The position numbers and the translations under genes are program-made. Shown piece by piece: positions 1,390-57,869 of a DNA stretch of 64,000 bases (its first letter is position 1; each line of letters begins with the position of its first letter). The DNA lies in contig CALCLY010000027.1 of NCBI GenBank assembly GCA_937966555.1, positions 14,620 to 78,619 of the forward strand, given 5' to 3'. The stretch is from an uncultured Clostridia bacterium (GTDB taxonomy: Bacteria; Bacillota; Clostridia; UMGS1883; UMGS1540). The notes under the pieces are model-generated. The model was given only the letters and a program-made list of their open reading frames with translations. It had not been told where the DNA came from and did not search any database.

Positions 1390-1850
1390 GCATTTGCGTT
1401 TGAGAGCGAACAAGCGCGAGCGACCGCCGGGCTTCGGAAAAATAGTGCAGAATGGACAAACTGAGCCCAAGCAAAGCTTGGGGTTACCCGAAGGCGTACA
1501 AAGGTACGCCGAGAGGCGAAGTTTTACTTCCTTATTTGCGTTGCGGAAACAAAACGGGCGACCACACAGGGTCGCCCCTACGGCGTCGGGACAAGCTGCG
1601 CTCCGTTCCGATTTTCGGAATGAAAATCAGTCACACGCTCCGCTGTTCCTCCTTTTCCGCGAAAAGTCACGTTTGCGAATGCTATGTGTTTGTAAACGCA
1701 CACATAACGCCTTCGCGGCACTACCAACTTTTCACGGTGGTTCGAGAACGCAGAAAAGGCTTAAAATCATAAAAAGCCGCGGCGTGTACGTGGCTTTTTA
1801 TTCATATATGAGGGTAGAAATGCAACGCATTTCGTAAGCCAAGGCAAGTG
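1390..1850. repeat. mosaic REP/BIME-like intergenic repeat cluster
   Basis: Modules are shared with 4636-4770 (gagagcgaacaagcg...gccgagaggcgaagtt) and 4320-4510 (about 190-bp element). Contains REP core 1555-1581 (minus orientation), terminator-like hairpin about 1769-1799, and a gagggtag-GAAATGCaacGCATTTC-cgtaag cassette at 1810-1837. Confidence 0.9.
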
Positions 1851-2257
1851 AAACTTGAACACGTATTGGTTTTTACATGCCAATTTTCCTCAAAACTGTG
1901 TCAAACACCTTGTAAATACGAAAAGTATTCACTGCGGTATTTTCCTTGTTTAAAGAAAAATTGGCTATGAAAAAACTGCTTGCACCTGCCGATGAGGAAT
2001 TTTATTAATAATTTAAGTGCAGAGGGTGCAGTCGGGCTGACGCCCGTCAAGCCCGATAAACTTAAAGAATTTTAAAATTCCCATCGCCAGGCAACATGTG
2101 TTCGGGTTTTACTTGCCGAAGCGCCGAATGCAATTTAAAACGACTGCTTGCTGTCGTTTTAGGAGCGAGCCGTGCGAGATCCCCTTTAGCCATTGTTTGA
2201 CATTATAACTGTGTGATATATTTACAAATAGGGAAGGAATAAAGAAAGGATGATATT

Positions 2258-3301
2258 ATGGCAAAAATTTCCGAAATTTTAGACAGCGCGGTAGAAAGCT
2301 TCCTTGAGATAACCCCAAACATCACATCGCACATGGAAAACTCCGAAAATCCGCATGGTGTTACAAAATCACAAGTGGGTCTCGGAAATGTTGACAACGC
2401 TAAACAGGCATCAAAAACCGAGTTTGATTCTCACACGGGCAACAAGGCAAATCCCCACGGCGTCACAAAATCGCAAGTGGGTCTCGGAAATGTTGACAAC
2501 GCTAAACAGGCATCAAAAACCGAGTTTGATTCTCACACGGGCAACAAGGCAAATCCCCACGGCGTCACAAAATCGCAAGTGGGTCTCGGAAACGTCGACA
2601 ACGCTAAACAGGCATCAAAAACCGAGTTTGACTCGCACGTTGCCGGCACCGCGTCAAAACATTCCGCCTCCGACATTGTCTACGATTCTTCAAGCGGCAA
2701 AAGTGTAAAAGATCAGATTCTTTCGATGCAGCTTAATGCAGGTCAGGGCACGCTTTTGCACAACGAACTTCAAAACCGCGACACGGCAAATCAGCACAGC
2801 ATAGACAGCATAACCGATTTGCGCGACGTTTTGGGCTACACAATCGTTATGACGGGCGAAACTACGGACGGCACAACGTATGTTGAGCTTTTGGGCGATC
2901 CCGCGCTTCCGCAGAGCAAGACAGGCGGATTTTTGGACGAGGACGGCAGGCTCACCGTGCCGCGCGGAATTGTTGCGCGCGCCGAAGTCAATATTATGTG
3001 CGCCCAGTACGCGGCGGACACGGACGGCGTCAACAAAATAAACGGCAATAGCTTAGCAAGATTCTATCTTGATACATGGGCTTTTGCATTAAACTCAATG
3101 CGCCAGATTTGGTATAAAGACGCGTCGGGAAACAATATGGAGTTTACCAAGTTTACAAGAAGCACGGACACCGCCGCAACCATTGACGCAAAACTCGCCT
3201 TTAAAGATGTGCAGTCAAATAAGCTCACGGTGTGCGGCGCGGCAGATACGCCGATGAAGTGGAGAGCGGAGATTAAAATTTCAAGTATTTTGAAGGTTTG
3301 A
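2258..3301 (+). CDS. phage tail-fibre-like protein with three NPHGVTKSQVGLGNVDNAKQASKTEFDSH repeats
   Basis: 347-aa ORF with AAGGA-type RBS. The H-x-VTK-x-QVGLGNVDN motif is characteristic of phage tail-fibre and receptor-binding proteins. I do not recognise the C-terminal 220 aa. Confidence 0.65.
   Translation: MAKISEILDSAVESFLEITPNITSHMENSENPHGVTKSQVGLGNVDNAKQASKTEFDSHTGNKANPHGVTKSQVGLGNVDNAKQASKTEFDSHTGNKANPHGVTKSQVGLGNVDNAKQASKTEFDSHVAGTASKHSASDIVYDSSSGKSVKDQILSMQLNAGQGTLLHNELQNRDTANQHSIDSITDLRDVLGYTIVMTGETTDGTTYVELLGDPALPQSKTGGFLDEDGRLTVPRGIVARAEVNIMCAQYAADTDGVNKINGNSLARFYLDTWAFALNSMRQIWYKDASGNNMEFTKFTRSTDTAATIDAKLAFKDVQSNKLTVCGAADTPMKWRAEIKISSILKV
2348..2638 (+). repeat. in-frame 102-bp tandem repeat, 2.9 copies, inside the tail-fibre-like gene
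   Basis: Copies start at 2348, 2450 and 2552. Every difference between copies that I can see is a synonymous third-position change. Confidence 0.95.
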
Positions 3302-3302
3302 G

Positions 3303-3441
3303 GAGCGGAGCACAAAACGGGCGACCACATAGGGGCGCCCCTACGGCGTCGGGACAAGCTGCGCTCCGTTCCGACGATATGAGGGTAGAAATGCAACGCA
3401 TTTCGTAAGCAACGCGCCGAGAAGAGCGAGCCGGGCGAGCG
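3303..3441. repeat. mosaic REP/BIME-like repeat cluster
   Basis: REP core 3318-3344 (minus orientation, degenerate arm). Also a ggacaagctgcgctccgttcc hairpin module, a gagggtag-GAAATGCaacGCATTTC-cgtaag cassette, and a gagcgagccgggcgagcga tail. Confidence 0.85.
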
Positions 3442-4263: not shown

Positions 4264-4775
4264 CGGCGAGCGGCCGCATAGGGACAAATCACGAATTGTC
4301 CGCATGGTGTGCGGACAATAAACGGGCGACCACATAGGGTCGCCCCTACGGCGTCGGAACAAGCTGCGCTTCGTTCCGATTTTGAATACAAAATCAGTCA
4401 CATGCTCCGCTGTCCCTCCTTTTCCGCGAAAAGTCACGTTTGCTTCGGCTATGTGCCCCAAAATGTGCACATAACGCCTTCGCGGCACTACCAACTTTTC
4501 GCGGTTGTTTTGGGGAAAGCGGTTTAAAATCATAAAAAGCCGCGACCTGTGCGTGGCTTTTTATTCCTATATGAGGGTAGGAAACAACATGTTGTTTCCG
4601 TAAGCGGAGCGCCGAATGCAACCAAACGCAATGCTTGCTTTGCGTTTGAGAGCGAACAAGCGTGAGCGACCGCCGGGCTTTGGGAAAATAGCGCAGAATG
4701 GACAAACTGAGCCCAAGCAAAGCTTGGGGTTACCCGAAGGCGTACAAAGGTACGCCGAGAGGCGAAGTTTGTTCA
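4262..4775. repeat. mosaic REP/BIME-like repeat cluster
   Basis: Contains: hairpin GGACAAATCACGAATTGTCC 4282-4301; REP core 4323-4349 (minus); a 190-bp element to about 4510; terminator-like hairpin about 4533-4562; perfect palindrome GGAAACAACATGTTGTTTCC 4580-4599; AAACGCAAtgcttgcTTTGCGTTT; and a gagagcgaacaagcgtgagcgac...gaggcgaagtt tail. Confidence 0.9.
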
Positions 4776-4910
4776 TAGCATAAAGCAAATAAGATGCAGA
4801 AATTTGCTGTGCGAATTTCAACATCTTTCTGCCATCTTCGATATACACTCTAAAAAAACATTTTTGTTTATTCTTTTTGCTTTATGCGATCTGTGCATTT
4901 TTACAAAGTC

Positions 4911-6395: not shown

Positions 6396-6448
6396 TACTT
6401 TTTTTAAAATTTTTTATTTTTTTGAAAAGAATTCAATATTGAAAACGG

Positions 6449-6950
6449 AAAAAGGCTTAAATTCATAAAAAGCCGCGGCGTGTACGTGGCTTTTTATTCC
6501 TATATGAGGGTAGGAAACAATGTGTTGTTTCCGTAAGCGGAGCGCCGAATGCAACCAAACGCAATGCTTGCTTTGCGTTTGAGAGCGAACAAGCGTGAGC
6601 GACCGTAAAAGCCGCGACCTGTGCGTGGCTTTTTATTCCTATATGAGGGTAGGAAACAATGTGTTGTTTCCGTAAGCGGAGCGCCGAATGCAACCAAACG
6701 CAATGCTTGCTTTGCGTTTGAGAGCGAACAAGCGTGAGCGACCGTAAAAGCCGCGACCTGTGCGTGGCTTTTTATTCCTATATGAGGGTAGGAAACAATG
6801 TGTTGTTTCCGTAAGCGGAGCGCCGAATGCAACCAAACGCAATGCTTGCTTTGCGTTTGAGAGCGAACAAGCGTGAGCGACCGTAAAAGCCGCGACCTGT
6901 GCGTGGCTTTTTATTCCTATATGAGGGTAGAAATGCAACGCATTTCGTAA
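6449..6950. repeat. tandem array of a 139-bp composite hairpin unit, about 3.5 copies
   Basis: Unit order: AAAAGCCGCG-N7-CGTGGCTTTTT hairpin, tatgagggtag, GGAAACAATGTGTTGTTTCC, cgtaagcggagcgccgaatgcaa, AAACGCAAtgcttgcTTTGCGTTT, gagagcgaacaagcgtgagcgaccg. The landmark gaccg recurs at 6601, 6740 and 6879, giving a 139-bp period. Copies 2-4 are near-identical. Confidence 0.95.
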
Positions 6951-7135
6951 GCCAAGGCAAGCACGGGCGACCACACAGGGTCGCCCCTACGGTCGTTTTA
7001 GGAGCGAACAAGTGTGAGCGACACCGCGGGGATAGGAAAAAAGCTTTGGAATCGACAAACTGAGCCGCAGCAAGGTAAAACTTGCTGCGGGTTACCCGAA
7101 GGCGTATGTGTATACGCCGAGAGGCGAAGTTTGCC
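6951..7135. repeat. mosaic REP/BIME-like repeat cluster
   Basis: REP core 6964-6990 (minus), ggagcgaacaagtgtgagcgac, and a variant of the ...acaaactgagcc...gttacccgaaggcgta...tacgccgagaggcgaagtt module seen at 1400-1530 and 4640-4770. Confidence 0.85.
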
Positions 7136-7214
7136 CGATAGCAAGAAAATAATAATTTCAGAAAAATCAAAATATTGATTTTTCTACTTTAAAATAAATA
7201 AAACATTACTGTTT

Positions 7215-7462
7215 ATTTTTTTCTTGCGTTCCGGAGTTTTTTAACATCCCCTTTTGTGTTGCGGAAAAAAACGGGCGACCACTGGGGGGTCGCCCCTACG
7301 GTATAATATTGAGAGCGTATAAATTCATAAAAAGCCGCGACCTGTGCGTGGCTTTTTATTCCTATATGAGGGTAGAAATGCAACGCATTTCGTAAGCGAA
7401 GCGCCGAATGCAAACTCGAAGGGCATACTTGTAGCCCTTCGAAGAGCTCGCCGTGCGAGCGA
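7215..7462. repeat. mosaic REP/BIME-like repeat cluster abutting the uxaA stop codon
   Basis: Contains the ttcttgcgttccggagttttttaacatccc module (7221-7255, also at 46583, 46647 and 50176), REP core 7272-7299 (minus), a terminator-like hairpin about 7328-7356, and the cassette unit 7363-7462 with alternative stems. Confidence 0.9.
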
Positions 7463-11059: not shown

Positions 11060-11136
11060 GAAGCGGAACACAAAACGGGCGACCACTGGGGGTCGCCCCT
11101 ACGGTACATTGTTGAAAGCGAACAAGCGTGAGCGAC
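11060..11136. repeat. REP/BIME-like repeat
   Basis: REP core 11076-11102 (minus orientation, loop actggggg) followed by gaaagcgaacaagcgtgagcgac. Confidence 0.85.
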
Positions 11137-11176
11137 AAAAAAGCCGCTGCAAAGGGGACTTATGCAGCAGCTTTTT
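11137..11176. terminator. bidirectional terminator-like hairpin between the convergent AraC and DegT genes
   Basis: AAAAAAGCCGCTGCA...TGCAGCAGCTTTTT, an imperfect stem flanked by an A-run and a T-run. Confidence 0.5.
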
Positions 11177-15802: not shown

Positions 15803-15848
15803 GGGCTGCCGCGGTGATTTTGTTCACAGCGGCAGCCCCGCTTTTTTA
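15803..15848 (+). terminator. intrinsic terminator
   Basis: GGGCTGCCGC (15803-15812) pairs with GCGGCAGCCC (15829-15838), followed by a T6 run. Confidence 0.7.
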
Positions 15849-15850
15849 TT

Positions 15851-16030
15851 GTCGCTCACGCTTATTCGCTCTCAACAATGTACCGTAGGGGCGACCCTGT
15901 GTGGTCGCCCGTGCTTACATTCGGCGCTTCGCTTACGAAACGGCAAGTCGTTTCTACCCTCATATCGTCGGAACGAAGCGCAGCTTGTTCCGACGCCGTA
16001 GGGGCGCCCCCCAGTGGTCGCCCGTTTATT
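15851..16030. repeat. mosaic REP/BIME-like repeat cluster
   Basis: REP cores 15885-15911 and 15998-16024 (both plus orientation). A third stem variant of the cassette occurs here (cttacGAAACGgcaagtCGTTTCtaccctcata), together with the gaacgaagcgcagcttgttcc module. Confidence 0.9.
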
Positions 16031-16152
16031 TTCCTCAAACCACACGGGCAGCTCATATCTATTAAAATGTTCATTTTCAAATTCTAATTTACAAAACGGC
16101 ATTTTTATGATATATTATATAGGAAAAAACTAAACTGTAAAGGAGACTTCAC

Positions 16153-19354: not shown

Positions 19355-19397
19355 TTAAAAAACCTTTCGTATATTATATTATACGGAAGGTTTTTTT
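19355..19397 (+). terminator. intrinsic terminator after the GLUG protein gene
   Basis: AAAAAACCTTTCGTATA ttatat TATACGGAAGGTTTTTTT. Confidence 0.7.
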
Positions 19398-19400
19398 ATT

Positions 19401-19490
19401 GGCCGCTCACACTTGTTCGCTTTCAAACGCAAAGTAGGGGCGACCCTATGTGGTCGCCCGTCTTGTGCTCCGCACACCAAACAAACAAGG
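19401..19490. repeat. REP/BIME-like repeat
   Basis: gctcacacttgttcgctttcaaacgcaaa, then REP core 19434-19460 (plus), then the start of the ccgcacaccaaac module. Confidence 0.85.
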
Positions 19491-19498
19491 AGGTAAAC

Positions 19499-20614: not shown

Positions 20615-20640
20615 ATTTATCATCCTTTCTTTATATGTTG

Positions 20641-20925
20641 TAGCTCACGCTTGTTCGCTCCTAAAACGACCGTAGGGGCGACCCTGTGTGGTCGCCCGTG
20701 CATGCATTCGGCGCTTCAACAACACATTGTTTCCTACCCTCATAGAGGTATAAAAAGCCACGTACACGCCGCGGCTTTTTATGATTTTAAGCCGCTTTCA
20801 ATAATGTACCGGTGTGGTCGCCCGTTTTGTTTCCGCACACCAAACGGACAATTCGTGAATTGTTCCTACAAAATAAAATCCAAATGCGCGGACAACAATT
20901 TTTCCGCATCCAATAATGTCCCGAC
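20641..20925. repeat. mosaic REP/BIME-like repeat cluster
   Basis: Contains gctcacgcttgttcgctc, REP core 20672-20698 (plus), inverted cassette and terminator-like hairpin modules, half REP 20814-20824, hairpin GGACAATTCGTGAATTGTTCC, and the aaatgcgcggacaacaatttttccgca module (an inverted copy is at about 63268-63298). Confidence 0.9.
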
Positions 20926-22019: not shown

Positions 22020-22040
22020 AATAATCTTTGCCTTTCTTCC

Positions 22041-22225
22041 TCACGCTTGTTCACTCTCCATAAATACCGTGAAAAGTTGGTAGTGCCGCGAAGGCGTTAT
22101 GTGTGCATTTATAAACACCAAGCATTCGCAAACGTGACTTTTCGCGGAAAAGGAGGGACAGCGGAGCGCAGCTTGTCCCGACGCCGTAGGGGCGACCCTA
22201 TGTGGTCGCCCGTTTTGTTTCCTCA
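22041..22225. repeat. mosaic REP/BIME-like repeat cluster
   Basis: The ccgtgaaaagttggtagtgccgcgaaggcg...acgtgacttttcgcgg element has 11-bp inverted ends. REP core 22186-22212 (plus). It lacks the CTGATTTTG...CAAAATCAG hairpin that is present in the copies at 26.4 and 30.5 kb. Confidence 0.9.
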
Positions 22226-22246
22226 ACACCATGCGGCAGCAAACTC

Positions 22247-23773: not shown

Positions 23774-24312
23774 TTTGTTATCTCCTTTTGGTTATATTCT
23801 TCGCCGCCCAGCGTTTTCCAATGGAATGTACCGTCAAATATCATATAGCTGTGGGGCGAATCCTGTTTCGGAATCGAAACGGAACCCGGATTTATATATG
23901 TGTAATTATCGTATTCTCTGCACTCCGGCACATGCGTGTGACCGCACAGCAGAATTTCTCCGTGCAGCTTTGAGAGAAAATCGTCGCTCAAGTTGTGCCC
24001 GTGAGCCGCATAAATCGTAACGCCGTCCGCAAGCAGAACCGCGCGCGGCGCAAGAATGTCAAACGGCAGCACCATGGCGTCAACCTCTGTGTCGCAGTTG
24101 CCGCGAACGCATATTATTTTGTCCGCCGCCGGCTGAAGAAGCGATATAACCTCCTTTGGGTCGTACAAATCAGGCAATGCGTTTCTCGGTCCGTGATAAA
24201 GTATATCTCCGAGAAGCAAAAGCCTGTCGGGATTTTCTCTTTTGTATGCCTCCATAAGTTTTGATACGTATTTTGCAGAACCGTGAAGGTCCGATGCTAT
24301 CATAATTTTCAT
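23770..24312 (-). CDS. yfcE: YfcE-family metallophosphoesterase (MJ0936-type phosphodiesterase)
   Basis: MKIMIASDLHGS, LLLGDILYHGPRN, VRGNCD and GHTH motifs. Confidence 0.85.
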   Translation of the reverse strand: MKIMIASDLHGSAKYVSKLMEAYKRENPDRLLLLGDILYHGPRNALPDLYDPKEVISLLQPAADKIICVRGNCDTEVDAMVLPFDILAPRAVLLADGVTIYAAHGHNLSDDFLSKLHGEILLCGHTHVPECREYDNYTYINPGSVSIPKQDSPHSYMIFDGTFHWKTLGGEEYNQKEITK

Positions 24313-24330
24313 GTTATTCTCCTTCCTTTG

Positions 24331-24415
24331 AGCTTCGCTGCTCTACCACCTTTTCGCTTTCAAAGCGCCGTAGGGGCGACCCTGTGTGGTCGCCCGTTTT
24401 GTTTGCGCACACCGC
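24331..24415. repeat. REP/BIME-like repeat
   Basis: REP core 24370-24396 (plus) followed by ttttgtttgcgcacaccgcac. Confidence 0.85.
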
Positions 24416-24426
24416 ACATTTCTTAC

Positions 24427-25278
24427 CTATCTCTTAAACCCTTCTCCCAAAACCTCTTTGGCGTCATTTATAATAACAAACGCATCGGGATCAAACTCGC
24501 GCACGGTTTTGACAAGCTGCGGAAGTTCCTTGGGGCGCACCACGCAAAGCAGCATAAGTCCGTCATCTCCCGAATACATGCCGCGGCAATGTATTCCCGA
24601 AACGCCGCGTTCGAACCTTTCCATAACGCAGCGCGCTATTTCCTCATTTTTCTTCGAGAAAATATGCACGGTTTTCGCATCGTCTCCCCACGTAACAAGA
24701 ATGTCCGTGATTTTCGCCGAAACGTACATGGAAAGGAGCGAATAAAATGTTATGTCAAAATCGCCGAAAACTATGCCCGAAAGCGCTATGGTTGCGCAGT
24801 CTATTATAAGAATCAGACGCGCTATGGAAATATGAGGGAAAAACTTTTTTAAAATAAGACCGGCAAAGTCGCTGCCGCCCGTGGACGAACCCACGCGCAC
24901 CACAAGCCCGAGTCCCACGCCGCAAAGCACGCCGCCCGAAAGCGCAGCAACCAAAACATTGCCCGTATACGGCGGAAAATAGCTTACAACTTCAAGAAAA
25001 ACTGTGAAAAGCAGCGTTCCCGAAACAGTTTTTGCAATCGCATATTTGCCCAAATGTCTGTAACCCAGCACAAAAAGCACCGCGTTTAACACAAGGTTTG
25101 TAATTGACAGTTTAATGCCGAAAAGGTGAAGCAGCACCGTTGCAACAGTTGTTACGCCGCCCGTGGAAATTTTACCCGGCGCCAAAAACATCGCCGCGCT
25201 CAGCGCCATGAGAAAGGTTCCGGCTGCGATAAAAGCCTGTTCAAAAAGTATTGTCTTCACCTTTTTTTGCATATTCAA
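24427..25278 (-). CDS. YitT-family membrane protein (DUF2179 C-terminal domain)
   Basis: Multi-transmembrane N-terminus containing GGVTT and GGSDF-type segments, and a soluble C-terminal domain HIFSKKNEEIA...RGVSGIHCRGMYSGDD. Confidence 0.8.
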   Translation of the reverse strand: MNMQKKVKTILFEQAFIAAGTFLMALSAAMFLAPGKISTGGVTTVATVLLHLFGIKLSITNLVLNAVLFVLGYRHLGKYAIAKTVSGTLLFTVFLEVVSYFPPYTGNVLVAALSGGVLCGVGLGLVVRVGSSTGGSDFAGLILKKFFPHISIARLILIIDCATIALSGIVFGDFDITFYSLLSMYVSAKITDILVTWGDDAKTVHIFSKKNEEIARCVMERFERGVSGIHCRGMYSGDDGLMLLCVVRPKELPQLVKTVREFDPDAFVIINDAKEVLGEGFKR

Positions 25279-26291: not shown

Positions 26292-26320
26292 AAGAATCTC
26301 CAATCCGATATCAAATTTTC

Positions 26321-26545
26321 GCTCACGCTTGTTCGCTCTCCATAGCCACCGTGAAAAGTTGGTAGTGCCGCGAATGCGTATATGTGTGCATTTATAAACA
26401 CCAAGCATTCGCAAACGTGACTTTTCGCGGAAAAGGAGGGACAGCGGAGCGTGTGACTGATTTTGTATTCAAAATCAGAACGAAGCGCAGCTTGTTCCGA
26501 CGCCGTAGGGGCGACCCTGCGTGGTCGCCCGCCTTGTGTTACGCG
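26321..26545. repeat. mosaic REP/BIME-like repeat cluster
   Basis: gctcacgcttgttcgctctc, then the 190-bp element including the CTGATTTTGtattCAAAATCAG hairpin, then REP core 26505-26531 (plus). Confidence 0.9.
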
Positions 26546-26613
26546 CATACGATATTTTTTACATATCAACAAATCTATTTTACCACTTTTTAACCAAAAA
26601 GGCAAGAAAAATA

Positions 26614-28533: not shown

Positions 28534-30268
28534 CTTTGTCCCCTCCCTTCGTCTGCTGCTCAAAGATTTCTCTGTATATCTCGCTGCGCTCCATAAGCTC
28601 GCTGTGCGTGCCGGAATCTGCAACCGTGCCGTTGTCCATTACAACTATAATATCCGCATCCTCAACCGAGGCAATGCGCTGCGCTATTATAATTTTTGTG
28701 GTTTCCGGAATGTATTTTTTAAACGCCGAGCGGATAAGCGCGTCGGTTTTCGTGTCAACCGCGCTTGTGGAGTCGTCAAGAATAAGTATTTTCGGCTTTT
28801 TCAAAAGTGCGCGCGCTATGCACAGGCGCTGCTTCTGACCGCCCGAAACATTTGTTCCTCCCTGTTCGATACGCGTTTCATATTTATCGGGAAAGCTTTC
28901 CACAAACTCGTCCGCACAGGCAAGGCGGCAGGCCTCGCGCAGCTCATCGTCTGTAGCGTTTTCATTGCCCCATCTGAGGTTTTCGGCTATCGTGCCGGAA
29001 AACAGCAGATTTTTCTGAAGCACCATTGATACCGCGCCGCGGAGCGTGTCGAGGTGATATTTTCTTACATCCTCGCCGCCTACCGAAACCGTACCCTCGG
29101 TCACATCGTAAAGCCTCGGAATCAGCTGCACAAGAGACGATTTTGAAGAACCCGTGCCTCCTATGATTCCCACAGTCATGCCCGATTTTATATGAAGATT
29201 TATATCCGAAAGCGCATATTTTTTTGCGCCCGCACTGTATTTAAAGCTTACTCCGTCAAAATCCACAGAGCCGTCTTTCACGGTCATCAAGGGATTTTCG
29301 GGTTCGGTCAGCGCCGGAGTTTCGCCCAAAACTTCGGTTATACGTTTGCCGGACTCCGCGCTCATCGTCAGCATGACGAAAATCATTGAAAGCATCATAA
29401 GCGACATAAGCACCTGCACGCCGTAGCTTAAAAGTGCCGAAATCTGACCGACGTCCAAAGCCGCGCCGCCGCTGCCTATAGCAAGCGACGAGCCTATCCA
29501 CAAAATGAAAACCATGTTAAAATACATGCATAGGGTCATAAGCGGAGTGTTAAGCGCCACAATTCTCTCCGCAAACACAAAGTCCTTTTTTATGTCCTCC
29601 GCGGCATTGTTGAATTTGTCTTTTTCGTAGTCCTCGCGCGCAAAGCCTTTTACAACGCGCATTCCGCGCACGTTTTCCTCAACCGATTCGTTAAGCTTAT
29701 CGTATTTTCTGAAAACGCGCCTGAACGCCGGCATGGCTTTTTTGCCTATAAACCACAGGCCGCAGCCGAGCACCGGTATAACAATAACAAACGCCGTGGC
29801 AAGCTTGCCGCCCATCTTAAACGCCATTATTACGGAGAAAATCATCATCAGAGGGCTTCGCACAGCCGTTCTTATCAGCATCATGAATGCCATCTGAACA
29901 TTGCTTACGTCCGTTGTAAGTCTTGTAACAAGCGAGGCGGACGAAAATTTGTCTATATTTTCAAAGCTGTAGCGCTGAATTGCGCGGAACATATCCGACC
30001 TTAAATTTTTCGCAAAACCCGCCGAAGCCTTTGAACACGTAAATCCCGCCAGTCCGCCGCACATAAGAGACGCGCACGCCATTATAACAAGCAGAAGCCC
30101 CGTTCCCAAAAGCTCGCGTATGTCCGTTCCTTTTCGTATATCGTTTACAAGTCCCGCCGTTATAAACGGGATTATTGTTTCAAAGATTGCCTCGCCCACA
30201 ATGAGCAAAAGTGTGTAGATTGCCGGTTTTTTAAATTCTCTTACCGATGCCCAAAGTTTTTTAATCAT
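28520..30268 (-). CDS. ABC transporter, fused permease/ATP-binding protein (heterodimer partner)
   Basis: GGTGSSKSS Walker A, VSGGQKQRLCIARA signature and ILDDSTSAVD Walker B. Start trimmed to MIKKLW (ATG 30268, AAGGAAGGAG upstream). Confidence 0.9.
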   Translation of the reverse strand: MIKKLWASVREFKKPAIYTLLLIVGEAIFETIIPFITAGLVNDIRKGTDIRELLGTGLLLVIMACASLMCGGLAGFTCSKASAGFAKNLRSDMFRAIQRYSFENIDKFSSASLVTRLTTDVSNVQMAFMMLIRTAVRSPLMMIFSVIMAFKMGGKLATAFVIVIPVLGCGLWFIGKKAMPAFRRVFRKYDKLNESVEENVRGMRVVKGFAREDYEKDKFNNAAEDIKKDFVFAERIVALNTPLMTLCMYFNMVFILWIGSSLAIGSGGAALDVGQISALLSYGVQVLMSLMMLSMIFVMLTMSAESGKRITEVLGETPALTEPENPLMTVKDGSVDFDGVSFKYSAGAKKYALSDINLHIKSGMTVGIIGGTGSSKSSLVQLIPRLYDVTEGTVSVGGEDVRKYHLDTLRGAVSMVLQKNLLFSGTIAENLRWGNENATDDELREACRLACADEFVESFPDKYETRIEQGGTNVSGGQKQRLCIARALLKKPKILILDDSTSAVDTKTDALIRSAFKKYIPETTKIIIAQRIASVEDADIIVVMDNGTVADSGTHSELMERSEIYREIFEQQTKGGDKDEQK

Positions 30269-30291
30269 GTTATTCTCCTTCCTTAGCATTC

Positions 30292-30715
30292 ACTGCCGCT
30301 TACGCTTGTTCGCTCTCAAACAATGTATCGTAGGGGCGACCCTGCGTGGTCGCCCGTTTTGTTTTTCTCACACCAAACGGACAATTCGTGAATTGTCCCT
30401 ACGCGTCGGAACATACACGCCGCGGCTTTTTATGATTTTAAGCCTTTTCTGCGTTCTCGATCCACCGCGAAAAGTTGGTAGTGCCGCGAATGCGTATATG
30501 TGTGCATTTATAAACACCAAGCATTCGCAAACGTGACTTTTCGCGGAAAAGGAGGGACAGCGGAGCGTGTGACTGATTTTGTTTTCAAAATCGGAACGAA
30601 GCGCAGCTTGTTCCGACGCCGTAGGGGCGACCCTGCGTGGTCGCCCGTTTTGTTTTTCTCACACCAAACGGACAATTCGTGAATTGTCCCTACGCGTCGG
30701 AACGTACACACCGCG
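30292..30715. repeat. mosaic REP/BIME-like repeat cluster with internal 89-bp direct duplication
   Basis: REP cores 30330-30356 and 30621-30647 (plus). Each is followed by ttttgtttttctcacaccaaacGGACAATTCGTGAATTGTCCctacgcgtcggaac. The two copies lie 291 bp apart and flank a 190-bp element. Confidence 0.92.
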
Positions 30716-41726: not shown

Positions 41727-41754
41727 AATGCATAATTAATAACCGCGAAAGCGG

Positions 41755-41902
41755 TTAAAATCATAAAAAGCCGCGGCGTGTACGTGGCTTTTTATTCCTA
41801 TATGAGGGTAGGAAACAATGTGTTGTTTCCGTAAGCGGAGCGCCGAATGCAACCAAACGCAATGCTTGCTTTGCGTTTGAGAGCGAACAAGCGTGAGCGA
41901 CC
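41755..41902. repeat. single copy of the 139-bp composite unit between the convergent LRR and sigG genes
   Basis: Same module order as the 6449-6950 array. It ends 2 nt before the sigG stop codon (41905-41907). Confidence 0.92.
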
Positions 41903-45910: not shown

Positions 45911-46036
45911 ATGAATTTTGACATAAATCTTTTTCTTTATACACTTCCCGTTATGGGGAAAGGCATGGCAGGCATTTTTATTGTGACCGCCGCGATTATA
46001 CTGTGCATGAAACTTATGACGGCGGCGGATAAGTAG
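45911..46036 (+). CDS. small OadG-like membrane subunit (41 aa)
   Basis: MNFDINLFLYTLPVMGKGMAGIFIVTAAIILCMKLMTAADK contains one transmembrane helix and the GMxxIF pattern of gamma subunits. Below the ORF-track size cutoff. Its TAG stop lies inside REP core 46033-46059. Confidence 0.5.
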   Translation: MNFDINLFLYTLPVMGKGMAGIFIVTAAIILCMKLMTAADK

Positions 46037-46059
46037 GGGCGACCCTATGTGGTCGCCCG
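46033..46059 (+). repeat. REP core immediately upstream of the RAYT gene
   Basis: GTAGGGGCGACCctatgtGGTCGCCCG. Confidence 0.95.
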
Positions 46060-46077: not shown

Positions 46078-46530
46078 ATGAACAAAATGCCAGAAAGAAA
46101 GCAAACCAGGTTGAAGGATTATGATTATTCGCAAAACGGATATTATTTCATAACAATATGTACCCATAACAGACAAAATTTATTCGGTGAAATCGTAGGG
46201 GCGACCCTATGTGGTCGCCCGAATAATCCTGATAAAATGATTGAAAAATGGTTATTGGAATTGGAAAACAAGTTTGATGGTGTCAAAATATGCGAATATA
46301 TTATAATGCCGAATCATTTGCATTTTATAATATCGAAAACGGGCGACCACGCAGGGTCGCCCCTACGGGATATTGTGGGTTGGTTTAAAACAATGACAAC
46401 AAATGAATATATAGAAAATGTAAAAAAAATATGTTTCCGCCGTTTGATAAAAAAATATGGCAACGCAATTATTACGAACATATTATTCGCGATGAAAGTG
46501 ATTATATTGAAACGAAGGAATATATATTAA
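46078..46530 (+). CDS. REP-associated tyrosine transposase (RAYT; IS200/IS605-type Y1 HUH family), zero-frame ORF that ends before the catalytic Tyr motif
   Basis: KQTRLKDYDYSQNGYYFITICT N-terminus, HUH motif MPNHLHFII and WFKTMTTNEY helix. REP cores lie in frame at 46195-46221 (VGATLCGRP) and 46340-46366 (TGDHAGSPLR). After the A8 run (46422-46429) the zero frame reads unrelated sequence. Confidence 0.8.
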   Translation: MNKMPERKQTRLKDYDYSQNGYYFITICTHNRQNLFGEIVGATLCGRPNNPDKMIEKWLLELENKFDGVKICEYIIMPNHLHFIISKTGDHAGSPLRDIVGWFKTMTTNEYIENVKKICFRRLIKKYGNAIITNILFAMKVIILKRRNIY

Positions 46531-46547
46531 ATAATCCTTTAAAATGA
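46428..46547 (+). other. -1 frame continuation of the RAYT gene encoding the catalytic-Tyr module
   Basis: The -1 frame reads NMFPPFDKKIWQRNYYEHIIRDESDYIETKEYILNNPLK then stop at 46545-46547, which is the conserved C-terminus of this family. It joins the zero frame at the A_AAA_AAA heptamer 46422-46428. This is a frameshifted pseudogene, a homopolymer sequencing error or recoding. Confidence 0.7.
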
Positions 46548-46552
46548 GAAAA

Positions 46553-46689
46553 GTAAGGGCGACCCTATGCGGCCGCCCCATTTTGCGTTCCGGAGTTTTT
46601 TAACATCCCGAATGATTTGTTTTACTTAAAAATTTTTTTTAGATATTTTCTTGCGTTCCGGAGTAGGGGCGACCCTATGTGGTCGCCCG
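46553..46689. repeat. REP cores and accessory modules downstream of the RAYT gene
   Basis: Degenerate REP 46553-46579, the gcgttccggagttttttaacatccc module at 46583-46612 with a partial copy at 46647-46663, and REP core 46663-46689 (plus). Confidence 0.9.
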
Positions 46690-48128: not shown

Positions 48129-48235
48129 GTCGCTTTGCGCTCAATATTGTATTCAAAATCGGAACAAAGCGCAGCTTGTCCCGACGCCGTAGGGGCGGCC
48201 CCATGTGGTCGCCCGTTTTGTTTTCCGCACCTTAC
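48129..48235. repeat. REP/BIME-like repeat between argH and argG
   Basis: ttgtattcaaaatcggaacaaagcgcagcttgtcccgacgcc, then REP core 48189-48215 (plus, degenerate left arm). Confidence 0.85.
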
Positions 48236-49464: not shown

Positions 49465-49595
49465 TTTAAAAACATCCTTTCGCCAAAAAATTTATTTGCT
49501 TTAATACTATTTTAATGCTATAATAGAAAAAAGTAAAGAGTTTTTTTGATATTTATGCATTTTTATGCAATATAAATAAAATAAGGAGCAAAGAC

Positions 49596-50096: not shown

Positions 50097-50175
50097 AAGA
50101 ATTTTTGTTTTTGATGTATTTATAGGAAATAAAACAGAAGGATTTGTATTATTTAATAATGTTGTTTAAATATTT

Positions 50176-50206
50176 TTCTTGCGTTCCGGAGCTTTTTAAC
50201 ATCCCC
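50176..50206. repeat. copy of the ttcttgcgttccggag(c/t)tttttaacatcccc module overlapping the 3' end of the Fe-S protein gene
   Basis: Same module as at 7221-7255 and 46583-46612. The stop codon (50196-50198) and the last two codons of the minus-strand ORF lie inside it. Confidence 0.75.
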
Positions 50207-50858
50207 TGCCCCCTTTGGGGCAGACGCTCATACATACCCCGCATACGGCGCCGCGCCCTATACTTTTAAATTTCTCTTTCATGTAGTCGCTGCACGCCTT
50301 GGCGTCAAAAATATCGTCTCTTGTCATGCCGCTTTGATACGCAACATTTTTTATGGCAAGCGCGCCGCATGCCTTGGAGCAGAGCGAGCAGCTGCCGCAC
50401 AAATCCTCCTGCACGCGGCAAAGCGTTTTCAAAGGAGCATTTGTGAAAACCGTGGCAAGCCTTACGCGCGGACCGAATTTGTGCGATATGAAAAGCGCGC
50501 TTTTTCCTATATATCCGAGCCCTGCGCGCACGGCAGCCGTTTTGTGCGGAAAAATGCCCTGCATGCCGTTTACGGACTGGCTTGCCGGCACTGCGGCGGC
50601 TCTGTAACCCATGCTCTGAAGATATAAAACAAGCTGCAGCGTGACGCTGTCAAGATACGCGTTGACGGTTCTGTAATGGTGAAAATACGTGTGCGTGGGG
50701 GAGGCGTCTATCTGCTCTGCCACAGCGTCCGAAAGGTGCAGCACGCATGATATAGCGGAAGGCAGTCCCTCAAAGGGCGTATCTTCGGAACATTCGGCAA
50801 AGCCCGAGTCCGAAATAAATCTGTCTTTTAAAAATTTATTGATATCGTCATTTAACAT
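50196..50858 (-). CDS. 4Fe-4S double-cluster protein, QueG/reductive-dehalogenase-like (short form)
   Basis: CGSCSLCSKACGALA and CGVCMSVCPKG ferredoxin-type motifs, plus the central pattern GLGYIGKSALFISHKFGPRVRLATVFT. The assignment to QueG is tentative. Confidence 0.6.
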   Translation of the reverse strand: MLNDDINKFLKDRFISDSGFAECSEDTPFEGLPSAISCVLHLSDAVAEQIDASPTHTYFHHYRTVNAYLDSVTLQLVLYLQSMGYRAAAVPASQSVNGMQGIFPHKTAAVRAGLGYIGKSALFISHKFGPRVRLATVFTNAPLKTLCRVQEDLCGSCSLCSKACGALAIKNVAYQSGMTRDDIFDAKACSDYMKEKFKSIGRGAVCGVCMSVCPKGGRGC

Positions 50859-50931
50859 AATGATTATTCATGTCCTTTGCGTGTATTTTATATAATAAGT
50901 ATAACTTAAATCGGCTTTAATGTCAATTCCC

Positions 50932-50960
50932 TTGACAAATCGGGAAAAAAGCTTTAAAAT
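50932..50960 (+). promoter_or_regulatory. sigma-A promoter upstream of the hypothetical-nifS-thiI-cinA gene string
   Basis: TTGACA (50932-50937), 17 nt, TAAAAT (50955-50960). Confidence 0.6.
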
Positions 50961-50997
50961 ATAGTATTGAAAAGCCGTCGAAAGGTAGGAATGCTTT

Positions 50998-52472: not shown

Positions 52473-52514
52473 AACTGTGCCGGTGCAGGGCGGCGGAAGG
52501 GAGATCAAATTAAT

Positions 52515-54129: not shown

Positions 54130-54922
54130 ACTTTGGGATAAAACCCCGTTTTTTGACGAAAATATCAATCAGCCGGAGCCGTTTTTAAAGCCGTATATAA
54201 AAGACGGCGCAAAATCCGCGGTTATTGTGTGCCCGGGCGGCGCATACCGCGACCTTGCCGAACATGAGGGCCATCCCGTTGCGCTGTGGCTCAATTCCAT
54301 AGGCATTACGGCGTTTGTGCTTACATACCGCCTCGCTCCGTACACGGAGAAAGCCATAACGGGCGATATTTTGAGAGCCGTGCGCGTGGTGCGCAGCAAT
54401 GCGGAAAACTTCGGCATTAAAAAAAACAAAATTGGCGTTCTGGGCTTTTCCGCAGGCGGACATTTGGCGTCTTCCGCGGCGGTGCATTTTTCGGATTTTG
54501 TTTTCCCGAAAACAGATGACACCGATAACGAAAGCTCGCGCCCCGATGCGGCAATACTTTGCTACCCCGTAATATCGCCGGACAGCGGCATGTGTCATGG
54601 AGACTCTTTTAAAAATCTTTTGGGCGAAAAGTTCGGAGACGAAAAACTGATGAATTATTATTCCAACGAAAAAGCGGTGAAACCCGACACACCGCCCTGC
54701 TTTTTGTGGCACACGGGAGGGGATGACGGAGTTCCGCCCGAAAACAGCCTGGAGTTTGCGAAAGGTCTGCAAAAAAATAAAATTCCGTACGAAATTCACA
54801 TTTATGCCGGCGGCAGACACGGAATGGGTCTTGCGCAAAATCTTAAAGGCGAGAATACGTTCCGCATAGAAAAATGGACCGAAAGCTGCGAAGAATGGCT
54901 TAAATCAATAGATTTTATTTAA
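54116..54922 (+). CDS. alpha/beta-hydrolase fold esterase
   Basis: VCPGGAY oxyanion region, the nucleophile elbow GFSAGGH, and a C-terminal GGRHG. 268 aa. Confidence 0.8.
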
Positions 54923-54944
54923 ATTCAGGACAGGGAGATAAACG

Positions 54945-57116: not shown

Positions 57117-57140
57117 GAGTAAAAACTAAGGAGAAAACCA

Positions 57141-57686
57141 ATGAAAAAATTTAATTTGAAAAAACAGGCTGAATGTGCGGTTCTTGCCGCGATTTTATGT
57201 ATTGCCGCACCGATGGCGATTCAGATAGGACCTGTTCCGATTTCGCTTGCAACATTCGTTATAATGCTTGCCGGCGTTATACTGCCGCCCGTGCAGGCGG
57301 CGGCAGCGGTGCTTATATACATACTTTTGGGCTGTTTCGGACTTCCGGTATTTTCGGGTGCGCGCGGCGGTGTTCAGATTCTGTTTTCGAGCACCGGCGG
57401 ATATATTATGTCGTACGTTTTTTATGCGCTTGTTATAAGCCTTGTGTGCAAAAAAAGATGTAATTCCGAAATGAAAAATGTTCTTATTGCAGTTTTGGGA
57501 TGCGTTTTGGGAACAGTTGTTTGCTACCTTTTCGGCACAGCGTGGTTTGTTAAGCTTTCGGGCAGTGATGTGGCATATGCCATGGGTGTTTGCGTGCTGC
57601 CGTTTCTGCCGCTTGACGCGGTTAAAATCGTTTTGGCGTCCGTTGCCGGAACTGCTGTGAGAACAAGACTCGAGAAGCTGAATTAA
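57141..57686 (+). CDS. bioY: biotin transporter BioY
   Basis: Six-transmembrane protein with PVPISLATF.VMLAG and GGYIMSY motifs. Confidence 0.85.
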   Translation: MKKFNLKKQAECAVLAAILCIAAPMAIQIGPVPISLATFVIMLAGVILPPVQAAAAVLIYILLGCFGLPVFSGARGGVQILFSSTGGYIMSYVFYALVISLVCKKRCNSEMKNVLIAVLGCVLGTVVCYLFGTAWFVKLSGSDVAYAMGVCVLPFLPLDAVKIVLASVAGTAVRTRLEKLN

Positions 57687-57689
57687 AAC

Positions 57690-57869
57690 GCTCACGCTTG
57701 TTCGCTCTTCGAAGGGCTACAAGTATGCCCTTCGAGTTTTCCATTCGGCGCTCCGCTTACGGAAACAACATGTTGTTTCCTACCCTCATATAGGAATAAA
57801 AAGCCACGTACACGCCGCGGCTTTTTATGATTTTAAGCCTTTTTGCGCTCTCCATAAATACCGTGAAAA
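57690..57869. repeat. inverted copy of the composite unit (alternative-stem version) between the convergent bioY and sigF genes
   Basis: Order: gctcacgcttgttcgctc, CTTCGAAGGGCTacaagtatGCCCTTCGAG, ttccattcggcgctccgcttac, GGAAACAACATGTTGTTTCC, taccctcata, AAAAAGCCACG-N7-CGCGGCTTTTT, and a ctctccataaataccgtgaaaa tail. Confidence 0.9.

Follow-up and report, generated by a model that had tools for sequence, protein, structure and literature searches.

The window, by which we mean the whole 64-kb stretch of DNA analysed here, carries numerous short interspersed repeats in its intergenic spacers and, at 46 kb, a pseudogene of a RAYT, a domesticated REP-associated tyrosine transposase (Y1/HUH, TnpA_REP-like; 46078..46550, + strand). 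By self-BLAST, the interspersed repeats add up to 4,451 nt or 7.0% of the window, in line with the roughly 4 kb (6–7%) estimated in an earlier note on this DNA; two coding repeats (2347-2638 and the LRR gene at 39212-40754) are left out of this total. Nearly all of the repeat DNA (4,325 nt, 97%) lies in the intergenic space, where it accounts for 52% of a total of 8,325 nt. Repeats occur in all seven convergent spacers and in 11 of the 14 co-directional spacers of at least 99 nt, and in none of the six divergent ones (hypergeometric p ~3e-4, computed from the spacer table). A block is also present behind a gene owning a strong terminator (1352-1390). Self-BLAST detected no interspersed repeat in the operon region from 30.8 to 38.7 kb, as had been noted before for the tightly packed operons, and zero modules lie in the ~9.4 kb of same-species sequence past RAYT locus B (see below); module density is therefore uneven.

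The principal repeat is a 27-nt core of a REP (repetitive extragenic palindrome), here called class A, with the structure GTAG-GGGCGACC-N6-GGTCGCCC-G. Its G+C-rich 8-bp stem and 6-nt loop fold with a dG of -9.9 kcal/mol (z=-4.5). Allowing up to 3 mismatches, we identified 18 cores in the 64-kb window, with 0 expected by chance (100 dinucleotide-preserving shuffles). A looser fuzzy search added those at 7272, 15998 and 46553, giving the total of 21 full cores that the earlier note had counted, all in place together with its half copy. The 5′ tag is GTAG in 20 of the 21 and GTAA in the remaining one. On the minus strand lie the cores at 1555..1581 (1 mismatch), 3318..3344, 4323..4349 (0 mismatches), 6964..6990, 7272..7299 (a variant with a 7-nt loop) and 11076..11102. 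Plus-strand cores are found at 15885..15911, 15998..16024 (degenerate, 4 substitutions), 19434..19460, 20672..20698, 22186..22212, 24370..24396, 26505..26531, 30330..30356, 30621..30647, 46663..46689 and, in the argH/argG spacer, 48189..48215; the other four are those in and beside the RAYT gene. The half core (about 20809..20832, +; repeat family D10) consists of the 3′ arm and a T-rich tail. A REP core followed by the TTTTGTTT tail scores terminator-like. Spacing between cores is irregular, ranging from 110 to 15,412 nt, and most class A cores are solitary rather than arranged in alternating orientation. An inverted class A partner within 200 nt exists only for the pair inside the RAYT gene, 46195(+)/46340(-), and the other 19 cores lack one. 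Alternation is restricted to pairs of class A with class D (30330/30402, 30621/30693 and 4323/4282), the class D partners of the two cores near 30 kb lying inverted at 30379-30402 and 30670-30693.

All further modules named in the earlier note recur, in 3–10 copies each. These are the terminator-like module AAAAGCCGCG-N7-CGTGGCTTTTT (10 copies), the gagggtag-hairpin-cgtaag module (10 copies), AAACGCAA...TTTGCGTTT joined to gagagcgaacaagcgtgagcgac (5 copies, GAGA also occurring by itself), GGACAATTCGTGAATTGTCC (4 copies), CTGATTTTG...CAAAATCAG with the spacer hairpin GTCGGAAC...GTTCCGA (4 copies), an element of ~85–105 nt, E85, with the ends CCGCGAAAAGT...ACTTTTCGCGG (5 copies), and the gttacccgaaggcgta tail (3 copies). 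Their description as stem-loops was borne out by single-stranded DNA folding, in which every module hairpin was more stable than its own shuffles (z from -2.6 to -4.9). In the terminator-like module, a T run follows the hairpin, and at five of its six loci the module stands in sense orientation 3′ of a gene. A search of Rfam gave no match at the gathering score.

A hairpin directly follows GTAG at 38 of 150 sites, compared with 0–13 for non-overlapping control tetramers, and these GTAG-tagged hairpins fall into four stem classes. Because both the gagggtag-hairpin-cgtaag and the GGACAATTC... modules are GTAG-tagged palindromes, they are further REP classes; the earlier claim that the additional modules recur thus stands, but two of them are not distinct from REPs. 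At least three GTAG-tagged classes besides class A are interspersed with several untagged hairpin modules. Across strains, the class B/C hairpin has constant flanks, GAGGGTAG...CGTAAG, around at least five different stems, each complementary within itself. Five module types have no GTAG and are tied to the RAYT solely by co-location.

Modules tend to be strung together in one recurring linear order, with sub-blocks absent or exchanged, matching the earlier portrayal as a BIME-like mosaic. The block at 1388..1848 (-) reads, in plus-strand order, GAGA, GTTA tail, REP(-), spacer hairpin, ~105-nt E85(-), terminator-like module(+) and class C GTAG hairpin(+); parts of 305 nt and 192 nt are missing in other strains. 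A shorter block at 3301..3420 (-) joins REP(-), the spacer hairpin and a class C GTAG hairpin, and at this locus strains L008 and L011–L013 have a terminator-like module instead of the whole REP and spacer module from 3318. The longest composite block, 4275..4792 (-), begins with a class D hairpin, REP(-), spacer, CTG hairpin and E85(-) and continues with the terminator-like module(+), a class B GTAG hairpin(+), the AAC hairpin with GAGA(+) and the GTTA tail(+); in L011–L014, 241 nt reaching past its end (4668-4908) are missing. Next comes a tandem array at 6447..7447 (+), whose 139-nt unit comprises the terminator-like module, a class B GTAG hairpin, the AAC hairpin and GAGA. Units begin at 6468, 6607 and 6746, with a partial one at 6885, and behind these stand two REP cores and additional modules. 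The array is shorter by two units (278 nt) in other strains.

A REP block in a convergent spacer (11062..11147, -) carries in L008 a 349-nt REP-cluster insertion at the 11076 core, and the same strain has a 130-nt E85 insertion in the block at 15842..16047 (+), which is composed of GAGA(-), REP(+), a GAG-like hairpin, spacer and REP(+). Further along the plus strand lie GAGA(-) with REP(+) at 19392..19497; GAGA(-), REP(+), terminator-like module(-), the half REP and a class D hairpin at 20638..20908; GAGA(-), E85(+) and REP(+), with the CTG hairpin precisely absent, at 22040..22236; a REP block occupying the whole of a 114-nt spacer at 24309..24431; and GAGA(-), E85(+), CTG hairpin, spacer and REP(+) at 26319..26567. 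The block at 30265..30715 (+) consists of GAGA(-), REP(+), class D(-), a terminator-like remnant, E85(+), CTG, spacer, REP(+) and class D(-). Behind the LRR gene lies a single 139-nt unit (41747..41902, +); ~20 nt separate the unit from the stop codon, and ~40 nt separate its terminator-like hairpin (41766-41793) from the same codon. CTG hairpin, spacer and REP(+) form the block at 48147..48232 (+), beside which L004–L006 have an additional 41-nt GAGA module. A short repeat remnant without assigned strand (50137..50207) marks the site of module insertions of 254–600 nt in L002–L006. The last block, 57689..57869 (-), lies 3′ of sigF and contains GAGA, a class B GTAG hairpin(-) and the terminator-like module(-), without a class A core.

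The RAYT gene at 46 kb is flanked by the cores at 46033..46059 (+) on its 5′ side, 46553..46579 (+; degenerate, with the GTAA tag) directly 3′ of its stop codon, and 46663. The TAG of the first of these (46034-46036) is the stop codon of a 41-aa ORF (45911-46036). Two more cores lie within the reading frame, one at 46195..46221 (+) encoding VGATLCGRP and an inverted one at 46340..46366 (-) encoding TGDHAGSPL, right behind the HUH strand. Of the 120 best homologues, 109 contain both peptides, and a Gimesia homologue has no in-gene REPs. In the homologue from L024, the REP segments are identical at 50 of 54 nt, compared with 64% for the remaining gene. In 48 of the 120 best homologues, 2–5 tandem TGDHTGS units separate the HUH strand from the following helix. 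The protein ends 7 residues after Y149, without C-terminal extension.

Because its frame shifts by -1 within a run of A at about 46424-46431, the 46-kb copy is not the active enzyme. An intact reciprocal copy of 156 aa is located ~100 nt past the end of the window. With the Pfam Y1_Tnp model (cut-off 23 bits), the intact allele scores 34.9 bits, and the window copy, because of its frameshift, falls below the cut-off with 21.8 bits. A profile of the family matches E. coli TnpA_REP (4ER8) with E=6e-8. The HUH residues H80/H82 and Y149 align to 4ER8, and W128, Q129, E134, H135, R138, Y149 and N153 correspond to W94, Q95, E100, H101, R104, Y115 and N119, the first five of which contact GTAG in the E. 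coli protein. Across 24 RAYT homologues, W128, Q129, H135 and R138 never vary, and E134 hardly does. The best 30 structural matches of an AF2 model with a pLDDT of only 65.8 were all Y1 transposases, 4ER8 included, and a fold search with this model returned nothing but Y1 transposases at E<=1e-3.

There are two RAYT loci in the species, A and B, each flanked by REPs and each polymorphic: a strain may carry the complete gene, just a REP (single or "double-foot"), or a REP-HUH-REP remnant of the gene's interior. The empty locus-A allele of L142, for instance, is the double-foot REP GTAG-GGGCGACC-CTATGT-GGCCGCCC-CTAC. The 46-kb copy is of locus-A type in its 5′ part and of locus-B type in its 3′ part, and is a recombinant pseudogene of the two loci. 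It also forms the left breakpoint of an ~18 kb inversion in the window strain, with reciprocal hybrid RAYTs at both ends. This inversion arose by reciprocal recombination between the two inverted RAYT copies. Most sampled strains retain an intact 156-aa RAYT in which every catalytic and GTAG-contact residue is present. The earlier proposal of a link between the repeats and the RAYT at 46 kb is supported by anatomy, namely the bracketing REPs, the GTAG tag, the contact residues and the flanks of homologues, but the copy it named is a pseudogene.

We compared orthologous spacers of strains 97.4–99.9% identical to the window, as the earlier note had suggested, and found modules gained, lost or exchanged at nearly every repeat-bearing spacer, with indels of 21–600 nt. 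RAYT itself is present, absent or reduced to an internal remnant among near-identical strains. Together with the varying number of 139-nt units, these differences support the view that the system was recently active. The boundaries of strain-specific indels showed no target-site signature or direct repeats, apart from the tandem unit. In L004, which lacks the RAYT, the junction lies inside the REP at 46553, and L140 retains an internal remnant with two inverted REPs; the junctions of both, of the double-foot REP in L142 and of the inversion all lie inside near-identical REPs.

The modules are not confined to the window, since they also occur in gut-metagenome contigs otherwise unrelated to it, from the same or sister populations. 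The exact REP core was found in MAGs assigned to about eight phyla, and the identical core also borders RAYT homologues in other genomes (L024, L051, L100 and L115). Accessory modules are lineage-specific. The earlier statement that so rich a set is unusual in a sporulating Firmicute was overstated: of the 8,000 candidates amenable to scoring, all of them scored, 7,941 passed as homologues of this RAYT at E<=1e-5, and those named come from Clostridia MAGs.

We propose that RAYT, by analogy to E. coli TnpA_REP, would bind GTAG plus hairpin on single-stranded DNA and cut and rejoin there, a catalysis we infer, by which GTAG-tagged hairpins may be seeded and removed. Short-homology recombination and replication slippage among near-identical modules would then shuffle, duplicate and delete whole blocks and so generate the mosaic. 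Blocks would persist only downstream of genes, where hairpins may do no harm or even serve a purpose; the T-tailed module and REP with TTTTGTTT, for instance, may terminate transcripts or stabilise their 3′ ends.

Host recombination and replication slippage might also make and reshuffle the mosaic by themselves, with RAYT a passenger or decaying relic that moves nothing. We regard this as possible, though rather doubtful. The events in L004, L140 and L142, the inversion and the 139-nt copy number fit plain recombination or slippage equally well: the first four have their junctions in near-identical REPs, and L010 differs from the window by exactly two units (278 nt) while being otherwise 99.93% identical. 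Several polymorphisms fit plain repeat recombination as well as RAYT action. The exchange of whole modules between conserved linkers, the lack of a target-site signature at module indels and the frameshift at 46 kb also point this way. Recombination alone, however, accounts neither for GTAG hairpins reaching new spacers nor for one GTAG tag on four unrelated stems, and a mere passenger is hard to reconcile with an intact 156-aa RAYT kept in most sampled strains, the window strain included, and with the same REP accompanying RAYT homologues across phyla.

The confinement of repeats to sites downstream of genes, with none in divergent promoter spacers, could instead indicate that the modules are chiefly selected cis-regulatory elements (intrinsic terminators, 3′-UTR stabilisers or small RNAs), repeated for their function and not by mobility. 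The sense-oriented, T-tailed hairpins, the terminator-like score of REP with TTTTGTTT and the co-variation of the hairpin stems agree with this. It is nevertheless unlikely, as modules are present, absent or swapped at orthologous sites of near-identical strains, a gene with its own strong terminator is still followed by a block, Rfam yielded no match at the gathering score, and function offers no easy explanation for tandem arrays of up to four units. A regulatory role and mobility are mutually compatible. Collapsed or chimeric assembly, which the earlier note had listed as a refuting outcome, is highly improbable. Many public contigs of the species do end at repeat blocks, such as 3.8-kb Logan contigs between the 26.5 and 30.3 kb blocks, and contigs of 2–5 kb predominate. 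Yet independent metagenome assemblies of different samples reproduce the arrangement across blocks (L009, 100% over 18.8 kb; L001, 99.96% over 21.4 kb; L010, 99.93%), and five contigs carry the frameshifted RAYT ORF (P0032).

In our preferred reading, the mosaic is probably a REP/BIME-type system belonging to a RAYT of TnpA_REP subclass 2.4, by the traits described in Quentin et al. 2018 (PMC6006769); this subclass equals RAYT Group 4 of Bertels et al. 2017 (PMC5581495). Shared traits are the Y1/HUH core with W-Q...E-H..R and the catalytic Tyr, a long canonical REP with three G-C pairs opening the stem right after GTAG, double-foot GTAG...CTAC REPs, in-frame REPs within the gene, a variable repeat-bearing insert from the HUH strand (beta3) to helix C, the lack of a C-terminal extension, and a patchy distribution across phyla. 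[quoted passage not shown] The E. coli system resembles ours in several GTAG-tagged hairpin classes that are combined with other conserved motifs in mosaic intergenic arrays downstream of genes, and in a RAYT placed between its own REPs (REPtron). Its RAYT, however, is of subclass 2.2 and lacks in-gene REPs, and its BIMEs alternate regularly in REP orientation, whereas here mostly solitary class A cores are joined to non-REP hairpins.

With the REPINs of Pseudomonas fluorescens, which are REP doublets folding into hairpins, the system shares REPs tied to a single- or low-copy RAYT, and the in-gene pair and the L140 remnant resemble them as two inverted REPs about 120 nt apart. A REPIN assignment was rejected, as only the in-gene pair fits; because almost no class A core has an inverted class A partner, the replicating unit is not evidently a REP doublet. 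IS200/IS605 elements (IS608, ISDra2) have the same protein fold and recognise sub-terminal hairpins on single-stranded DNA, as predicted here, but we found neither a tnpB nor an IS-like unit bounded by defined left and right ends, and the RAYT gene sits at fixed loci while the hairpins are dispersed. In another Firmicute, the pneumococcal BOX elements are built of boxA, boxB and boxC modules; they are likewise hairpin-forming intergenic repeats of variable module number in a Gram-positive host, with sequences unrelated to the present modules and, to our knowledge, neither a GTAG tag nor an associated RAYT. We also rejected a MITE, given the absence of direct repeats at indel boundaries (tandem unit aside) and of common block termini, and a CRISPR array, given the irregular core spacing and no cas among the called genes.

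The repeats constitute a real and dynamic REP/BIME-like system in an uncultured, spore-forming human-gut Clostridia bacterium. REP mosaics tied to a RAYT were already known; here one is found in a little-studied host, with change visible between near-identical strains.

Searching the window with the REP core pattern GTAGGGGCGACCCTATGTGGTCGCCCG, with up to three mismatches allowed, returned 18 matches, compared with none in 100 dinucleotide-preserving shuffles. A looser fuzzy search added three cores, at 7272, 15998 and 46553. The resulting 21 cores start exactly where an earlier note, made by eye, had placed them; the half copy it mentioned was found at about 20809, and every other module it named recurs in the window. 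As single-stranded DNA hairpins, all modules fold better than shuffled sequences (z −2.6 to −4.9). By self-BLAST, repeated DNA amounts to 6,316 nt, of which 1,835 nt are coding repeats, located in the gene at 2258–3301 (a 102-nt repeat) and in the gene of a leucine-rich repeat (LRR) protein. With the coding repeats removed, the interspersed family covers 4,451 nt or 7.0% of the window, close to the roughly 4 kb (6–7%) estimated before. With genes taken as called on public same-species contigs, these repeats make up 4,325 of 8,325 intergenic bases (52%). Only 126 repeat bases fall inside coding sequence, essentially two REPs within the gene of the REP-associated tyrosine transposase (RAYT), and the operon region at 30.8–38.7 kb is free of repeats, as previously noticed. 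Rfam at gathering score reported no family in the window, and ARAGORN found neither tRNA nor tmRNA there. CRISPR, MITE and REPIN were rejected as identities of the repeats on membership criteria.

The repeats lie downstream of genes. They are present in all convergent spacers (7/7) and in 11 of the 14 co-directional spacers of at least 99 nt, versus none of the six divergent, promoter-containing spacers, one of which is 455 nt long (hypergeometric p ~3e-4). Alignment of the blocks revealed a recurring module order instead of a free mosaic. Read with the REP on the minus strand, an optional class D hairpin is followed by the REP, a spacer hairpin, the CTG hairpin and a ~105-nt element with inverted ends; the order continues from this element to a terminator-like hairpin, the GAGGGTAG hairpin, the AAC hairpin with GAGA and the GTTA tail. 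Single blocks miss at least one piece of this preferred order. A 139-nt sub-unit forms a tandem array at 6468–7023.

We inspected every GTAG in the window for a hairpin starting 0–1 nt downstream and found one at 38 of 150 sites, compared with 0–13 for control tetramers not overlapping GTAG. The GTAG-tagged REPs form a family of several classes that has its cognate RAYT. Four classes can be recognized by their stems: class A, the main core (GGGCGACC), class B (GAAACAA), class C (AAATGC) and class D (GGACAATTC). The gagggtag-hairpin-cgtaag and GGACAATTCGTGAATTGTCC modules, which the earlier note had listed among the other modules, are therefore themselves GTAG-tagged palindromes. The flanks of the class B and C modules are constant, and at least five different self-complementary stems occur between them across strains and metagenome contigs. 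In the AAAAGCCGCG-N7-CGTGGCTTTTT module, a T run follows the hairpin; from our reading of the block tables, this module lies in sense orientation 3′ of a gene at 5 of 6 loci. The REP followed by TTTTGTTT was also scored as terminator-like. Class A cores are confined to the minus strand up to 11.1 kb and, except for one inverted in-gene copy, to the plus strand from 15.9 kb onward; local gene direction, with the terminator-like module in sense, explains this switch at least as well as replication strand. The 41-aa ORF at 45911–46036, following an oadB-like gene, ends in the TAG of a REP's GTAG (GAT AAG TAG GGG...), so that its stop codon comes from the REP; GTAG REPs have been reported to do this in other species (PMC3733652).

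Assembly artefacts had been considered as a possible source of the blocks. Two near-identical contigs match the window at 100% over 18.8 kb (L009) and 99.96% over 21.4 kb (L001), blocks included. Since assemblies made independently agree on the blocks down to the base, the blocks are not artefacts. Public short-read contigs of the same species typically break at them.

For a comparison between strains, we used metagenome contigs coding for proteins identical to those of the window. In aligned DNA they are 97.4–99.9% identical to it, and indels of 12–600 nt separate them at almost all repeat-bearing spacers. Turnover between strains is rapid: modules were gained, lost or swapped, in agreement with the previous assumption of recent activity. 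Blocks of 305 and 192 nt at ~1.5 kb and 241 nt from 4668 are present or absent; at 3318, a REP and its spacer hairpin are swapped for a terminator-like module with more modules added behind. The window and contig L010 differ by two units (278 nt) in the 139-nt array and otherwise by 13 substitutions in 18.6 kb. Further differences are a 349-nt REP cluster at 11090 in the strain contig L008, a 130-nt element at 15935, a 41-nt module at 48129 and inserts of 254–600 nt at ~50.1 kb. At the module indel boundaries, placed by MAFFT and mostly imprecise, we found no target duplication and no consistent GTAG-adjacent cut site. A seeming 21-nt deletion of only the hairpin at 3320 turned out to be a whole-module replacement upon realignment.

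Several coding repeats vary as well. The BspA-type LRR_5 protein gene at 39024–41726 consists of 69-nt periodic repeats and is directly followed by a 139-nt repeat unit; complete calls have 900 aa, those at locus edges 963, 967 and 1427 aa, and the gene is absent in the loci L140–L142 and L145. The 102-nt unit at 2327–2638, in a gene of 347 aa, has three copies here and two in contigs L012–L014, and the DUF6017 gene has a 15-nt unit (AAAGCGGAAAAACCA, at about 3784) that varies between strains. In contig L007, synteny with the window stops inside the tandem module array (window 6885, L007:11951-21371). Beyond that point lie phage genes (Mu-like gpT capsid, portal, GP3_package), and this region contains a REP core together with terminator-like and class C modules at ~L007:16440-16570.

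The RAYT ORF at 46078–46530 scores 21.8 bits against Y1_Tnp, under the cut-off of 23, whereas other strains have an intact allele of 156 aa that scores 34.9 bits. In the window copy, an A run (A8 versus A9 or AAAAAATAA) carries a −1 frameshift, through which the C-terminal half is lost. The gene at 46 kb had thus been correctly identified as a RAYT but is a frameshifted pseudogene, not a working gene. The family profile matches E. coli TnpA_REP (4ER8) with E=6e-8. The TnpA_REP residues with reported GTAG contacts, W94, Q95, E100, H101 and R104, align to W128, Q129, E134, H135 and R138, and its catalytic Y115 and N119 to Y149 and N153; all seven RAYT residues are invariant or nearly so among 24 homologues. 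A fold search with an AF2 model returned exclusively Y1 transposases at E≤1e-3, 4ER8 among them; with a mean pLDDT of only 65.8, the model is limited to topology.

Two mutually inverted REP cores lie within the RAYT reading frame. REP1 (46195, plus strand) codes for VGATLCGRP in a low-confidence loop after strand 1, and REP2 (46340, minus strand) for TGDHAGSPL in the loop that joins the HUH strand to the helix after it. Of the 120 best RAYT homologues, 109 contain both peptides and 48 have tandem GDHxGS units, 2–5 per protein. The variable residues of the peptides correspond to the hairpin loop positions. In the RAYT of locus L024 (63% identical), the REP segments are identical in 50 of 54 nt versus 64% in the remaining gene, the RAYT of locus L100 has the first in-gene REP only, and in the Gimesia homologue neither was found. 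Because of these three observations, the in-gene REPs are insertions maintained at the DNA level and not an ancestral protein motif.

The species has two RAYT loci, which differ between strains. At locus A, after the oadB-like gene and the 41-aa ORF, a full 153-aa RAYT gene is present in strains L143 and L182, a single double-foot REP in L142, and in L140 only REP1, a 118-nt HUH-coding fragment and REP2 (L140:7262-7427 versus window 46195–46366). This last allele is a REPIN-like doublet derived from the RAYT gene itself. At locus B, beside argH, the gene and one REP are precisely missing from strain L004, and the junction falls within a REP. The window RAYT is a hybrid of an A-type 5′ part and a B-type 3′ part. 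The reciprocal hybrid, B-5′/A-3′, is an intact 156-aa gene on a window-like contig (L173:7901-10525), beside spoIIR and a locus-B neighbor; by our own arithmetic it lies about 100 nt past the window end. The segment with argH, topoIV, sigF, GAPDH and spoIIR (window 46078–64000 and beyond) is inverted relative to most strains. Since both ends carry reciprocal hybrid RAYTs, reciprocal recombination between the two inverted RAYT copies inverted the region from ~46.3 to ~64.1 kb. GC skew and gene orientation flip near 46–50 kb because the left breakpoint of the inversion is located there. REPs and RAYT copies serve as recombination substrates for deletion, remnant formation and inversion.

The modules are not confined to the window, a possibility raised previously. 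Scanning metagenome contigs for class B and C modules yielded 26 stretches, 19 of them with real hairpin modules and all from gut-type assemblies. Contigs L149, L155, L160, L164, L168, L170 and L172 have only the repeats in common with the window and are otherwise unrelated in sequence; the family is therefore genome-wide. The exact 27-mer core occurs in at least 120 stretches of GTDB species representatives. Their metagenome-assembled genomes (MAGs) are labeled, as deposited, Clostridia (Oscillospiraceae, Acutalibacteraceae, Ruminococcaceae, Sporobacter), Chloroflexota (Anaerolineae, Chloroflexia, Thermomicrobiales), Planctomycetes including Gimesia, Binatia, deltaproteobacteria, Saccharibacteria, Chthonomonadia and Kapaibacterium. 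By deposited label, these loci (L015–L134) represent about eight phyla, with G+C contents of 0.37–0.66 and unrelated flanks. Among the matches listed, 138 of 144 cores lie outside any RAYT ORF, and no accessory module was found in the 120 other-species loci. The RAYTs in L024, L051, L100 and L115 are flanked by the core even at ~48% protein identity (tblastn).

Chloroflexia have the core as close inverted doublets, and in two deltaproteobacterial MAGs it adjoins a second, different hairpin (ggcagacacgcaggtct / ggcggacacgcgggtcc). The Clostridia MAG MGBC116426 (L115:6400-7800) has a tandem array of ~229-nt period in which alternating inverted cores surround a RAYT fragment; nine exact cores lie within 1.3 kb. 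Phages do not suggest themselves as vectors because, in 2.9 million IMG/VR contigs scanned, a single one has the core (IMGVR_UViG_3300037400_002447, loci L183–L185; four copies in 43.7 kb). In the literature, the core sequence gave chance primer matches only.

TnpA_REP subclass 2.4, corresponding to Bertels' Group 4, is characterized by REPs inserted into the gene in frame, a variable insert with repeats between beta3 and helix C, double-foot REPs, the absence of a C-terminal extension and a patchy distribution across phyla (Quentin et al. 2018, PMC6006769). The system described here matches on every trait examined, and the assignment goes by these traits. It is a REP/BIME-like system with a subclass-2.4 RAYT, a kind already known. 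The earlier note considered it unusual for a sporulating Firmicute. The host can be described as a spore-forming, uncultured Clostridia bacterium of the gut, since same-species gene calls include spoIIR, spoIIAA-AB-sigF and spoVA, and the nearest named RAYT belongs to a MAG labeled "Clostridia bacterium". In Clostridia such systems are not rare, with at least 7,941 RAYT homologues among 8,000 candidates scored. With these corrections (a pseudogene at 46 kb, REPs among the modules, and a system not rare in Clostridia), the overall interpretation of that note is supported. To our knowledge, work on REP/RAYT systems has been limited almost entirely to Proteobacteria.

Judging from its homologue E. 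coli TnpA_REP, the RAYT would recognize GTAG and the hairpin on single-stranded DNA, cut and rejoin it, and in this way may seed or remove tagged hairpins. Recombination and slippage among near-identical modules would then build and reshuffle the blocks. Through selection the blocks would persist only in 3′ regions, and the T-tailed hairpins may act there in transcript termination or stabilization. The main rival explanation assigns the mosaic to recombination alone, with a passive RAYT. It is the less likely of the two but not remote, given that every well-resolved junction falls within a repeat and the indel boundaries showed no target signature.

We further considered, as a rather unlikely reading, that one core hairpin, GTAG-GGGCGACC-CTRYGT-GGTCGCCC-G, has stayed essentially the same in genomes labeled as about eight phyla, accompanying subclass-2.4 RAYTs that have diverged to ~48–63% protein identity, and that the in-frame inverted pair of this REP in RAYT genes of the Clostridia branch acts as a gene-borne master copy. 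The in-gene pair would tie the REP sequence to coding sequence, could be released as a REP doublet, as in L140 (REP1, HUH fragment, REP2), and might re-seed the REP family after horizontal transfer; the GTAG-tagged classes B–D would arise in situ as new substrates.

A subclass-2.4 system thus fills half of the intergenic DNA in an abundant uncultured human-gut Clostridia species. In practical terms, its repeats break short-read assemblies of this species at nearly every long spacer. Public strains with full, absent or remnant RAYT, together with module turnover and the inversion, provide a natural experiment in which the role of the RAYT in REP turnover becomes addressable. The near-identical core across phyla versus lineage-specific accessory modules is a puzzle not described in the RAYT literature surveyed. 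Three points, modest ones, may be new: that the core is identical across phyla, that a REP pair from within the gene persists as a doublet, and that an inversion is bounded by RAYTs. If it holds, the cross-phyla identity of the core bears on the co-evolution and spread of RAYTs and REPs.
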